Shown here: positions 2,033 to 60,611 of the stretch, in pieces
Numbering within the stretch: the first letter of the stretch is position 1
Layout: each line of letters begins with the position of its first letter
DNA from: Escherichia coli
GTDB taxonomy: Bacteria; Pseudomonadota; Gammaproteobacteria; Enterobacterales; Enterobacteriaceae
Direction: 5' to 3' (one strand)
NCBI RefSeq assembly: GCF_003018115.1
Contig: NZ_CP027457.1
Length of the DNA stretch: 64,000 nt
Translations under genes and position numbers: made by a program
Notes under the pieces: generated by a model
What the model saw: the letters and a program-made list of their open reading frames with translations, nothing else
Told to the model about the DNA's origin: nothing
The model's database searches: none

Positions 2033-3289
2033 TTAGTGGCTAACCGTCTGTGTACCTGTCGGGACACGAACGTGTTTATATTTGAACATCGCCATGAACG
2101 CGAAGGCCAGAACCACGGAGTAACCAGCGAAAATCAACCATACGGTCTGCCAGTCGGTAATGCCGTTTTGGGTGTACATCTCAACCACTTTACCGCTCAC
2201 GATGCCGCCGAGGATACAGCCGAAGCCGTTGGTCATCATCAGGAACATCCCTTGCGCACTGGCGCGAATCGCCGGGCTAACTTCTTTTTCGACAAACACC
2301 GAACCAGAGATGTTGAAGAAGTCGAACGCACAGCCGTAAACAATCATCGACAGAACCAGCAGTACGGTGCCGAACGGAGTCGGGTCGCCGTAAGCAAACA
2401 GCGCAAAACGCAGGATCCACGCCACGATACTGATCATCATTACGTTCTTAATGCCGTAGCGGCTTAAGAAGAACGGGATGGTCAGAATGAACAGGGTTTC
2501 AGAGATCTGCGAAATCGACATGATGATTGACGCATGCTGCACAATAAAGCTGCTGGCAAACATCGGATCTTTGTCGAAGCTGTGCAGGAAGGTATTACCG
2601 AACATGTTGGTAATCTGCAGTTCCGCGCCCAGCAGCATTGAGAAGATGAAGAAGATTGCCATACGCTTGTTTTTAAACAGCGCGAATGCATCGAGGCCCA
2701 GCAGGGTTGTCCAGCTCTGATTCGCTTGCTGTTTAGCAACCGGAATATGCGGCAGAGTCAGGGTAAACAGAACCAGAATGGCGGAAAGTGCTGCGCCAAT
2801 ATACAGCTGCATGTGGCTTAATTCGAAGCCAGACAGGCTCACCACCCACATTGCCATGATAAAGCCGATGGTGCCCCAGATACGGATTGGCGGGAAGTCA
2901 GTAACGATATCCATCCCGGCATTTTGCAGGCGATAGTAAGAGATGGTGTTGATTAACCCAAGCGTTGGCATATAAGCAAACGAGTTAATCAATATCACAA
3001 GGAACATCGCTTCCGGCGTCGTGACCTGTGCCGCCATGAACAGCGTGATAGCGCCAATGGTGTGGCAAATGGCATATACCCATTTCGCACTTAACCATTT
3101 GTCGGCCACAATCCCCAGCAGCGCAGGCATAAAGACCGCGGCGATACCCAGTGAGCTATAAACTGCGCCAATAGAAGCACCGTCAAACTTCAGGGTAACA
3201 AACATATAGGAACCGAGGGTCGTCAGCCAACTTCCCCACAGACAGAACTGCAGAAAAGAGAGGATTTTCAGCTGCAGCTTAAGATTCAT
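2033..3289 (-). CDS. nupG: Nucleoside:H+ symporter NupG (MFS)
   Basis: ORF 2033..3337; start placed at MNLKLQLKIL (418 aa); polytopic membrane protein matching NupG. Confidence 0.93.
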   Translation of the reverse strand: MNLKLQLKILSFLQFCLWGSWLTTLGSYMFVTLKFDGASIGAVYSSLGIAAVFMPALLGIVADKWLSAKWVYAICHTIGAITLFMAAQVTTPEAMFLVILINSFAYMPTLGLINTISYYRLQNAGMDIVTDFPPIRIWGTIGFIMAMWVVSLSGFELSHMQLYIGAALSAILVLFTLTLPHIPVAKQQANQSWTTLLGLDAFALFKNKRMAIFFIFSMLLGAELQITNMFGNTFLHSFDKDPMFASSFIVQHASIIMSISQISETLFILTIPFFLSRYGIKNVMMISIVAWILRFALFAYGDPTPFGTVLLVLSMIVYGCAFDFFNISGSVFVEKEVSPAIRASAQGMFLMMTNGFGCILGGIVSGKVVEMYTQNGITDWQTVWLIFAGYSVVLAFAFMAMFKYKHVRVPTGTQTVSH

Positions 3290-46056: not shown

Positions 46057-46154
46057 AAGAAAAATTGCCTGATGCGCTACGCTTATCAGGCCTACACGTA
46101 TCCTGCAATATATTGAATTAGCAGGTTTTTGTAGGCCGGATAAGGCGTTCACGC
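46057..46154. repeat. REP/BIME pair between fbaA and mscS
   Basis: gcctgatgcgctacgcttatcaggcctac ... gtaggccggataaggcgttcacgccgcatccggc. Confidence 0.85.
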
Positions 46155-57757: not shown

Positions 57758-58990
57758 ATGGCAAAGGTATCGCTGGAGAAAGACAAGATTAAGTTTCTGC
57801 TGGTAGAAGGCGTGCACCAAAAGGCGCTGGAAAGCCTTCGTGCAGCTGGTTACACCAACATCGAATTTCACAAAGGCGCGCTGGATGATGAACAATTAAA
57901 AGAATCCATCCGCGATGCCCACTTCATCGGCCTGCGATCCCGTACCCATCTGACTGAAGACGTGATCAACGCCGCAGAAAAACTGGTCGCTATTGGCTGT
58001 TTCTGTATCGGAACAAACCAGGTTGATCTGGATGCGGCGGCAAAGCGCGGGATCCCGGTATTTAACGCACCGTTCTCAAATACGCGCTCTGTTGCGGAGC
58101 TGGTGATTGGCGAACTGCTGCTGCTATTGCGCGGCGTGCCGGAAGCCAATGCTAAAGCGCACCGTGGCGTGTGGAACAAACTGGCGGCGGGGTCTTTTGA
58201 AGCGCGCGGCAAAAAGCTGGGTATCATCGGCTACGGTCATATTGGTACGCAATTGGGCATTCTGGCTGAATCGCTGGGAATGTATGTTTACTTTTATGAT
58301 ATTGAAAACAAACTGCCGCTAGGCAACGCCACTCAGGTACAGCATCTTTCTGACCTGCTGAATATGAGCGATGTGGTGAGTCTGCATGTACCAGAGAATC
58401 CGTCCACCAAAAATATGATGGGCGCGAAAGAAATTTCACTAATGAAGCCCGGCTCGCTGCTGATTAATGCTTCGCGCGGTACTGTGGTGGATATTCCGGC
58501 GCTGTGTGATGCGCTGGCGAGCAAACATCTGGCGGGGGCGGCAATCGACGTATTCCCGACGGAACCGGCGACCAATAGCGATCCATTTACCTCTCCGCTG
58601 TGTGAATTCGACAACGTCCTTCTGACGCCACACATTGGCGGTTCGACTCAGGAAGCGCAGGAGAATATTGGCCTGGAAGTTGCGGGTAAATTGATCAAGT
58701 ATTCTGACAATGGCTCAACGCTCTCTGCGGTGAACTTCCCGGAAGTCTCGCTGCCACTGCACGGTGGGCGTCGTCTGATGCACATCCACGAAAACCGTCC
58801 GGGCGTGCTAACTGCGCTGAACAAAATCTTCGCCGAGCAGGGCGTCAACATCGCCGCGCAATATCTACAAACTTCCGCCCAGATGGGTTATGTGGTTATT
58901 GATATTGAAGCCGACGAAGACGTTGCCGAAAAAGCGCTGCAGGCAATGAAAGCTATTCCGGGTACCATTCGCGCCCGTCTGCTGTACTAA
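57758..58990 (+). CDS. serA: D-3-phosphoglycerate dehydrogenase
   Basis: 410 aa, NAD Rossmann motif plus C-terminal ACT domain. Confidence 0.98.
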   Translation: MAKVSLEKDKIKFLLVEGVHQKALESLRAAGYTNIEFHKGALDDEQLKESIRDAHFIGLRSRTHLTEDVINAAEKLVAIGCFCIGTNQVDLDAAAKRGIPVFNAPFSNTRSVAELVIGELLLLLRGVPEANAKAHRGVWNKLAAGSFEARGKKLGIIGYGHIGTQLGILAESLGMYVYFYDIENKLPLGNATQVQHLSDLLNMSDVVSLHVPENPSTKNMMGAKEISLMKPGSLLINASRGTVVDIPALCDALASKHLAGAAIDVFPTEPATNSDPFTSPLCEFDNVLLTPHIGGSTQEAQENIGLEVAGKLIKYSDNGSTLSAVNFPEVSLPLHGGRRLMHIHENRPGVLTALNKIFAEQGVNIAAQYLQTSAQMGYVVIDIEADEDVAEKALQAMKAIPGTIRARLLY

Positions 58991-59010
58991 TTCCCCTTCT
59001 CTGAAAATCA

Positions 59011-59041
59011 ACGGGCAGGTCACTGACTTGCCCGTTTTTTT
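59011..59041 (+). terminator. serA intrinsic terminator
   Basis: acgggcaggtc-N-gacttgcccgt hairpin followed by T7. Confidence 0.8.
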
Positions 59042-59171
59042 ATCCCTTCTCCACACCGTTGCCGCGTTGCGCATTCTACTTTGCGAGTCTGCTCCAGAAA
59101 ATAAATCAAAGTCAGATCAATGCGTTGTGTTTATTTAATGGGGATTTACGATGGCAGGACAGCATAGGGCT

Positions 59172-59330
59172 GTAACGGTAAAGCCCTCACCGAAGCGAGG
59201 GCTTGAAGGAGAAGGGTTATGATGCGACTTGTCATCATACTGATTGTACTGTTACTCATAAGTTTCCCAGCTTATTAACAGTCAGTCTCAGGGGAGGAGT
59301 CATCCTCCCTTACCCTTACTCACTAAATTA
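59172..59330 (-). ncRNA. Inferred Sib-type antisense sRNA opposite ibs copy 1 (approximate ends)
   Basis: Sib antitoxins are ~140-nt antisense RNAs covering the ibs ORF; minus-strand hairpin gccctcgcttcggtgagggc then UUU lies just beyond the ibs 5' end. Confidence 0.35.
59219..59278 (+). CDS. Ibs-family type I toxin (19 aa), copy 1, variant with Pro17
   Basis: atgatgcgacttgtcatcatactgattgtactgttactcataagtttcccagcttattaa = MMRLVIILIVLLLISFPAY; GGAGA RBS 6 nt upstream. Confidence 0.7.
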   Translation: MMRLVIILIVLLLISFPAY

Positions 59331-59360
59331 GGTCAAAGAATCAACGATGTCAATCAGGGC

Positions 59361-59428
59361 GATGCGGGATGTATCGCCCTGAACCGATCATTTGGATGCG
59401 GGATGTATCGCCCTGAACCGATCATTTG
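59361..59428 (+). repeat. Perfect 34-bp tandem direct duplication
   Basis: gatgcgggatgtatcgccctgaaccgatcatttg occurs twice back-to-back (59361-59394, 59395-59428). Confidence 0.95.
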
Positions 59429-59597
59429 ATAGACACTTCATCGCCCACGTTTACTGCCGTAATTAATCCCTTATCCCTGCAATGTGTGTCTGTCTTACAT
59501 GACGTTTTACGAGTGCGCTCGAAGAAAAAATTTAAAGGTAGATCAATGCATTGTGCATATTTAAAGAGAGTTTACGATGGCAGGGCAGCATGGGGCT

Positions 59598-59756
59598 GTA
59601 ACGGTAAAGCCCTCACCGAAGCGAGGGCTTGAAGGAGAAGGGTTATGATGCGACTTGTCATCATACTGATTGTACTGTTACTCATAAGTTTCAGCGCTTA
59701 TTAACAGTCAGTCACAGGGGAGGAGCAATCCTCCCTTACCCTTACTCACTAAATTA
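59598..59756 (-). ncRNA. sibC: Inferred SibC-type antisense sRNA opposite ibs copy 2 (approximate ends)
   Basis: Same repeat architecture as copy 1, 426 bp downstream. Confidence 0.35.
59645..59704 (+). CDS. ibsC: Ibs-family type I toxin IbsC (19 aa), copy 2
   Basis: atgatgcgacttgtcatcatactgattgtactgttactcataagtttcagcgcttattaa = MMRLVIILIVLLLISFSAY. Confidence 0.75.
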   Translation: MMRLVIILIVLLLISFSAY

Positions 59757-59804
59757 GGTTAAAGAATCAACGATGTCAATCAGGGCGATGCAGGTGTGTC
59801 GCCC

Positions 59805-60353
59805 TCACCACTCCCAGACTTTCGACGGTGTAACCACCGCAGGAAGAGGGATATCCCACTCTTCAACGGGGAGTTTTTCCACCAACTGACAATCATGCGC
59901 ATAACCCACCGGTTGCATTTTATAGTGCTGCCAGTTTTGTAAGGTCCGATCATAAAAACCACCGCCCATTCCCAGGCGCTGGCCGTACTCATCAAAGGCG
60001 ACCAGCGGTGTGATCAACACGTCTAATCGGGAAAGGGGTAGCACGTCACGCACATCCAATTTTGGCTCATGGATCTTCAACCTGTTCATCACCAGTTCGC
60101 TTTGCGGATGGTAATTCAGGAACAGCAAATTACCGGCACTAAAGGGATGCAAAACTGGAAGATATACGCGCTTACCGGCGCGCCAGAGTTGTTCTATGAG
60201 TGGCTGGGTGTCGAGTTCGCCATCAAAAGAGAGGAATACAGCGACCGTATGTGCCATCACCACCGGGGGATAAGTCATCATCCGGGTAGCGGCTTGTTGA
60301 CCCATTTCCTGCTGTTGTTCCGGCGTTAACGTACGACGACGTTGCCGAATCAT
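59805..60353 (-). CDS. fau: 5-formyltetrahydrofolate cyclo-ligase family protein Fau (YgfA)
   Basis: ORF 59805..60551; start set at MIRQRRRTLTPEQQQEM (182 aa); downstream of ssrS as in K-12. Confidence 0.88.
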   Translation of the reverse strand: MIRQRRRTLTPEQQQEMGQQAATRMMTYPPVVMAHTVAVFLSFDGELDTQPLIEQLWRAGKRVYLPVLHPFSAGNLLFLNYHPQSELVMNRLKIHEPKLDVRDVLPLSRLDVLITPLVAFDEYGQRLGMGGGFYDRTLQNWQHYKMQPVGYAHDCQLVEKLPVEEWDIPLPAVVTPSKVWEW

Positions 60354-60424
60354 TTTGCGGATTTCTTGTCGGGATAATGTCAGTGGGAGTTCTGGTAGTT
60401 GCGTCATGGCTGGTGCCAGATAAG

Positions 60425-60611
60425 AAGGGAATCTCCGAGATGCCGCCGCAGGCTGTAACCCTTGAACCCTTGGTTCAAGGTGAATGTGTCGTCGCAGTTT
60501 TAAGGCTTCTCGGACGGACCGAGCATGCTCACCAACCGCGGAGCGCCACATTCTTGTGGTATGAAATATCGGCTCAGGGGACTGGCCCGCTTGCGAACAT
60601 CTCAGAGAAAT
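60425..60611 (-). ncRNA. ssrS: 6S RNA
   Basis: Minus-strand sequence reads AUUUCUCUGAGAUGUUCGCAAGCGGGCCAGUCCCCUGAGCCGAUAUUUCAUACCACAAGAAUGUGGCGCUCCGCGG...GGCAUCUCGGAGAUUCCCU, matching E. coli 6S RNA; between zapA and fau. Confidence 0.92.

Follow-up and report, generated by a model that had tools for sequence, protein, structure and literature searches.

The interval between serA and fau in this Escherichia coli genome carries, in our reading, two tandem and intact SibC/IbsC modules, which form one haplotype of a common, long-standing one-or-two-copy polymorphism at the serA-fau locus; we give this reading a probability of roughly 85%. Many E. coli genomes share this polymorphic two-module state, which has already been annotated and is not new, and the family, its mechanism, its tandem tendency and the two-copy locus have all been described or annotated before. 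The sib/ibs copy number expected from K-12 fails for a third of E. coli, and this mismatch matters for small-RNA annotation and for RNA-seq multi-mapping at serA-fau. All coordinates below refer to the window, by which we mean the whole 64,000-nucleotide stretch of DNA that was analyzed.

A repeat finder located one repeat family in the interval, with two direct copies of 289 nt each that are 90% identical and have a start-to-start spacing of 426 nt, in agreement with the original prediction of two ∼290-bp units lying 426 bp apart between serA and fau. Repeat unit 1 (59080..59368, from repeat finder and alignment) is proximal to serA and contains the ibs promoter region, the ibs-1/Sib-1 overlap, and the Sib promoter. 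Repeat unit 2 (59506..59794, from the repeat finder) is proximal to fau and is separated from unit 1 by an inter-copy spacer (59369..59505) that single-copy genomes lack. When the units are aligned pairwise, ∼29 positions differ; the core from ∼59135 to 59366 is nearly identical, and the first ∼70 nt are more diverged. The left flank is formed by serA (phosphoglycerate dehydrogenase, 57758..58990, plus strand), a 410-amino acid ORF annotated as serA in matching E. coli records, followed by a hairpin and T-run (59010..59036, plus strand), which is the sole terminator-like site in a scan of 58950-59850. The right flank is fau (5-formyltetrahydrofolate cyclo-ligase, 59805..60407, minus strand; coordinates carried over from the annotation of strain AB66), and the 6S RNA gene ssrS lies beyond it, directly upstream of fau (60428-60611, minus strand; Rfam match of 139.8 bits). 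The longest mechanical ORF for fau (59805-60551, minus strand, 248 amino acids) extends into the 6S gene, and the RefSeq protein has 200 amino acids. Placement of ssrS next to fau, with this overlap with the longest ORF, is the usual ssrS-fau arrangement.

Each repeat unit contains an ibs ORF of 19 codons plus stop on the plus strand, with a GGAG(A) motif that precedes the ATG by 7 nt (59208-59212 in copy 1, with the Shine-Dalgarno GGAG at 59208-59211). Both ORFs, and the GGAGA ribosome binding sites claimed for them, were found by translation and by reading the sequence; they are absent from the list of ORFs, which used a 20-amino acid minimum. Copy 1 (59219..59278) encodes MMRLVIILIVLLLISFPAY, the common Pro-17 allele of IbsC, and copy 2 (59645..59704) encodes MMRLVIILIVLLLISFSAY, which equals K-12 IbsC. 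The peptides differ at residue 17 only (Pro versus Ser), and translations compared with K-12 thus bear out the earlier description of copy 2 as IbsC and of copy 1 as its variant with Pro for Ser-17. Both copies have the features that define an Ibs family member, namely a 19-residue hydrophobic ORF with a Shine-Dalgarno sequence, located wholly antisense within the span of a Sib RNA.

The copy 1 peptide is identical to that of copy 1 in O145 strain RM9872, to that of the single copy in strain F9792, and to WP_071525914.1, which carries the RefSeq name “type I toxin-antitoxin system toxin IbsC”; the copy 2 peptide corresponds to WP_010723220.1 in AB66 and O145. Of 5426 complete E. coli genomes, 1199 contain the 81-nt copy 1 sequence without a mismatch, CCA at codon 17 included, and the six records among the matches listed for this exact allele all have a single place, annotated ibsC. 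Codon 17 encodes Ser, Pro, Gly, Ala, or Gln across alleles, and Pro also occupies the position of residue 17 in K-12 IbsB (..ISFPAY) and K-12 IbsE (..LSFPTY), the latter being termed “toxic peptide” in the K-12 record; this resemblance lends indirect support to toxicity of the Pro-17 peptide. Pro-17 is ordinary family variation and a major natural ibsC allele, not a lesion. We had considered a rare or disabling mutation, which is ruled out by the 1199 genomes and by the occurrence of this allele as the sole copy in many of them. The variant toxin had been singled out as noteworthy, a view that does not survive its frequency or the RefSeq naming of its product as IbsC.

Antisense to each ibs ORF, we located a Sib RNA gene on the minus strand. 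Matches to the Rfam SIB_RNA family (RF00113) were obtained at 59203-59353 for copy 1 (137.6 bits, E 2.9e-28) and at 59629-59779 for copy 2 (134.6 bits, E 1.6e-27), both on the minus strand. Both span model positions 1-147 of 147 and are far above chance (gathering score 56), and these full-length matches support the antisense RNAs that had been inferred in the original prediction. With RNA ends taken over by analogy from the K-12 annotation, Sib-1 would correspond to 59177..59317 and Sib-2 to 59603..59743, each 141 nt long. Sib-1 is of the SibC type and shares 136 of 141 positions with K-12 SibC; Sib-2 is SibC with one substitution (A30U; 140/141 identical). When the five K-12 Sib RNAs were aligned, SibA, SibB, SibD, and SibE shared at most 115 of 136 aligned positions with either of the window Sib RNAs. 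We assign both units to the SibC subtype because K-12 SibC is closest by sequence and because they are located at serA-fau, and this comparison with K-12 sibA-E/ibsA-E had been proposed as a check in the original prediction. A relocated SibA, SibB, SibD, or SibE paralogue as the origin of copy 1 is ruled out by its 136/141 identity with SibC.

Minimum-energy folding yields -55.3 kcal/mol (z -4.9) for Sib-1 and -53.9 kcal/mol (z -5.8) for Sib-2. The predicted architectures are alike, with a P1 closing stem, P2, P5, and P6 hairpins, a single-stranded J1/7, and a terminator hairpin (at +114-137 in the Sib-1 prediction), and they agree with the SibC architecture described previously (PMC2943612). 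In both predicted folds, +49-51 is located in the P5 loop and +107-113 is unpaired. Reading the sequence upstream of the RNAs, we found that TTGACA-N17-TAATTT precedes the K-12-equivalent +1 by 7 nt in each copy. These candidate promoters have their boxes at 59353-59348 (TTGACA) and 59330-59325 (TAATTT) for Sib-1, and at 59779-59774 and 59756-59751, respectively, for Sib-2. The candidate -10 box TAATTT fits the consensus at 3 of 6 positions only, and a σ70 consensus scan of 58950-59850 found no promoter; the Sib and ibs candidate promoters deviate from consensus.

Comparison of Sib-1 and Sib-2 revealed six differing positions: +17 and +18 in the P2 loop, +30, and +49-51. The last three form the triplet opposite ibs codon 17 (59267-59269 in copy 1 and 59693-59695 in copy 2), which reads UGG in Sib-1 and GCU in K-12 SibC. 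Sib-1 thus has UGG for GCU at +49-51 (Pro-17 for Ser-17) and GA for UG in the P2 loop when compared with K-12 SibC, whereas fold, TRD2, the Shine-Dalgarno/start region, and terminator of both window copies are like those of K-12 sibC/ibsC. The K-12 MG1655 sibC/ibsC module (b4446/b4665) is found between fau (ygfA) and serA, in the same locus and orientation as in the window. MG1655 has exactly one module there, as stated in the original prediction, and no spacer, compared with two modules plus spacer in the window.

To define the frequency of the two-copy state, we searched 5426 complete E. coli genomes with a query that covers the spacer (window 59354-59520). It matched in 1857 genomes (about 34%), O157:H7 and O145 included; 55 matches are at least 99% identical, 309 are 90-95% identical, and 1493 are 80-90% identical. 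With an 81-nt probe across the ibs ORF, 5422 genomes gave 7288 places, never more than two each. This corresponds to ∼1866 genomes with two SibC-type copies, in agreement with the spacer count. We opened one record per spacer identity class (O145 RM9872, O157:H7 N8B7-2, and EC43) together with the best match, AB66. All four have the order serA, ibs, ibs, fau, and both ibs coding sequences are annotated by RefSeq. Over the whole region, none of the genomes in the collection matches the window exactly; AB66 comes closest (99.4%). The original prediction had regarded the two-copy number as noteworthy for this genome, a claim that we do not uphold since about 34% of complete E. coli share it and it is already annotated.

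The O145:H28 RM9872/RM13514 group, O157:H7, phylogroup B1 strains such as EC43, and AB66 share the window layout (serA, ibs/Sib-1, spacer, ibs/Sib-2, fau). The O145 group encodes the same peptide pair (FPAY, then FSAY) with a spacer at least 99% identical, and O157 and EC43, unlike the window, have other codon 17 alleles (Gly/Pro). In AB66, O157, and EC43, the two copies differ in addition at +113 in TRD2, a difference that is absent from the window and from O145. Two Sib/Ibs modules likewise share one intergenic region in K-12 sibA-sibB and sibD-sibE, with start-to-start periods of 335 and 376 nt, respectively, compared with 426 nt for the window pair, and ibs-sib loci have been described as characteristically repeated in tandem (Fozo et al. 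2010, PMC2887945). The K-12 tandem pairs are diverged in both recognition domains, whereas the window pair differs in TRD1 only; with the exception of ibsA, the K-12 pairs are reported to be cognate-specific (PMC2943612).

We then considered the history of the locus. Strain F9792 (NZ_CP024273.1) and a set of records that includes O169:H41 strains are closest to the window by their flanks among the matches listed. This group is 99.6% identical to the window over 24.5 kb and 425 nt shorter. F9792 contains a single module (positions 19487-19886 of its locus were compared with window 58985-59810). On the serA side this module equals window copy 1, and beyond a switch point it continues with the copy 2 tail. 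The switch occurs within a 31-nt stretch that both units share without a difference (59336-59366 and 59762-59792). The F9792 single copy looks as if an unequal crossover had cleanly removed 426 bp from a window-type pair, as judged from these alignments, and we infer that copy number shifts by unequal homologous recombination between the units. The single copy of K-12 is a different mosaic of copy 1-like and copy 2-like sites. These comparisons indicate that the pair is old and has been lost repeatedly.

Outgroup loci were collected by a pattern scan of genome contigs with CATCATAACCCTTCTCCTT, which returned 22 stretches. Eight enterobacterial ones were used, and the other 14, which look like chance matches in unrelated phyla, were left out; the pattern missed some Escherichia representatives, so the outgroup sample is incomplete. 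Single modules occupy the serA-fau interval in E. albertii, Escherichia sp. E1V33, Escherichia sp. MOD1-EC7003, Citrobacter sp. MGH106, and Pseudocitrobacter vendiensis, the first four being species representatives. Two modules and a homologous spacer are present in a divergent record, SCPM-O-B-8794, which is titled E. coli and whose serA 3′ end is only 89% identical. Outside Escherichia, Pseudocitrobacter faecalis has two tandem Sib matches (2670-2820 and 3012-3161 of its locus) beside fau and 6S RNA, of which the latter match is more diverged (101 bits); this locus was seen without its serA end. Two modules in P. faecalis versus one in P. vendiensis suggest an independent copy-number change at the same locus.

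A falsely duplicated repeat, which the original prediction had named as a concern, would make the second unit an assembly artefact. We found nothing in favor of this explanation, the one oddity being an exact 34-bp duplication that reaches into the spacer, and this duplication is also present in the independent assembly of AB66. With ∼29 differing positions, a unique spacer between the copies, and the same layout in complete genomes (about 1857) that many laboratories produced on many platforms, we reject an artefact with near certainty. A rival reading, in line with the tandem duplication of the original prediction, is that a K-12-like single sibC/ibsC module was duplicated recently and in one lineage, and that Ser-17 then changed to Pro in the new copy. 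K-12 does have one copy, and the single modules of E. albertii, E1V33, MOD1-EC7003, and MGH106 mean that one copy may be ancestral for the genus. Yet the units are only 90% identical, and far less so in their first ∼70 nt, and the spacer has diverged homologues (80-95% identical) in some 1800 other genomes as well as in a divergent lineage of Escherichia, which indicates that the pair is old. The Pro-17 (CCA) allele occurs alone in many single-copy genomes, and CCA and AGC differ at all three bases, which argues against a simple point mutation. The single copy of the nearest relative is itself a deletion derivative of the pair, and limited alignments point to copy 1 and copy 2 as separate deep clades that do not pair within genomes. 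A recent duplication is therefore improbable in our view. The description as a tandem duplication holds in that two modules are arranged in tandem, but it oversimplifies as a duplication relative to K-12, since copies and spacer are old and diverged. We thus favor an old one-or-two-copy polymorphism, of which the window carries one haplotype.

The mechanism of the family has been defined for K-12. IbsC is a 19-residue membrane peptide that, upon over-production, depolarizes the membrane and kills the cell, and its repression by the cognate Sib is likewise established (PMC2943612; review PMC8309996). SibC is fully complementary to the ibsC mRNA of ∼159 nt (PMC2943612; PMC8309996). Pairing starts at either TRD1 (+46-68, P5 loop, within the ORF) or TRD2 (+99-115, J1/7, over the Shine-Dalgarno and start codon) (PMC2943612). 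One domain alone is enough for repression, which is lost only when both are changed, and SibC +1-29 is dispensable (Han et al. 2010, PMC2943612). By analogy, each window module would produce a plus-strand ibs mRNA of ∼159 nt, starting near 59159 or 59585, and its 19-residue hydrophobic peptide would depolarize the inner membrane when over-produced. Each module would also express, constitutively and from the minus strand, a 141-nt Sib RNA with full complementarity to its own ibs mRNA. This RNA would initiate at TRD1 (P5 loop, opposite ibs codons 12-18) or at TRD2 (J1/7, opposite the Shine-Dalgarno/start), and pairing is expected to block translation and lead to decay of the ibs mRNA.

The significance of the pair had been sought in cognate-specific pairing, and this is unlikely to hold fully, since the copies differ in TRD1 only and have the same TRD2. 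We predict that each Sib represses both ibs mRNAs, leaving the pair at most partly insulated, because TRD2 is shared between the copies and because either domain sufficed in the experiments of Han et al. This prediction extrapolates from plasmid co-transformation assays, in which the published TRD1 mutant was UGC, compared with UGG in window Sib-1. The alternative is that the modules are insulated cognate pairs, in which the TRD1 triplet alone confers specificity and the toxins are released independently. Sib +49-51 differs between the copies in six of six two-copy loci examined, and SibC and SibD are strictly cognate with determinants in TRD1 and TRD2 (PMC2943612), both consistent with insulation. 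Against it, TRD2 and indeed all 90 nt from +52 to +141 are identical between Sib-1 and Sib-2, where insulated Sib RNAs would be expected to differ in both domains. SibC in which G49CU51 was replaced by UGC, and which thus has a SibD-type TRD1, still repressed ibsC through TRD2 (PMC2943612), and the window has no counterpart of the additional TRD2 difference at +113 in AB66, O157, and EC43. We consider full insulation unlikely and retain the prediction of cross-repression.

The TRD1 triplets in these six loci (CCA/AGC, GGA/CCA, and GGA/GCCA, written as ibs codons) look like a hot spot of variation; they suggest selection for some discrimination and argue against full redundancy. We propose, tentatively, that the haplotype of the window and of the O145 type may represent a naturally half-diverged Sib pair, in which the TRD1 triplet and codon 17 were split by selection for discrimination and TRD2 is shared. 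If this were true, ibs codon 17 would be hypervariable through selection at the level of RNA, not protein, and the natural alleles could be used to test how many domains must diverge for tandem modules to become independent. The difference between these alleles coincides exactly with the TRD1 triplet that has been mutated experimentally, and they represent ready material for tests of Sib discrimination.

The 34-bp exact tandem duplication mentioned above (59361..59428, repeat finder) consists of two copies of GATGCGGGATGTATCGCCCTGAACCGATCATTTG. It begins in the last 8 nt of unit 1 (59361-59368), continues into the spacer, and sits upstream of the Sib-1 -35 box. Both 34-bp units occur in only one of the 5426 complete E. 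coli genomes, AB66, whereas a single unit is present in 54 others that share the spacer. The duplication, which probably arose by replication slippage, is the only rare detail of the region and has no evident function. Elsewhere in the window, Rfam returned a match to the ES036 (CssrF) small RNA at 46088-46130 on the minus strand (40.0 bits, compared with a gathering score of 37.6). The 24.5 kb from 39500 to 64000 have a median of 37 matching places per E. coli genome, with at least 40 in 3444 records, and these numbers mean that short dispersed repeats (REP-like or IS fragments) must lie inside this stretch.
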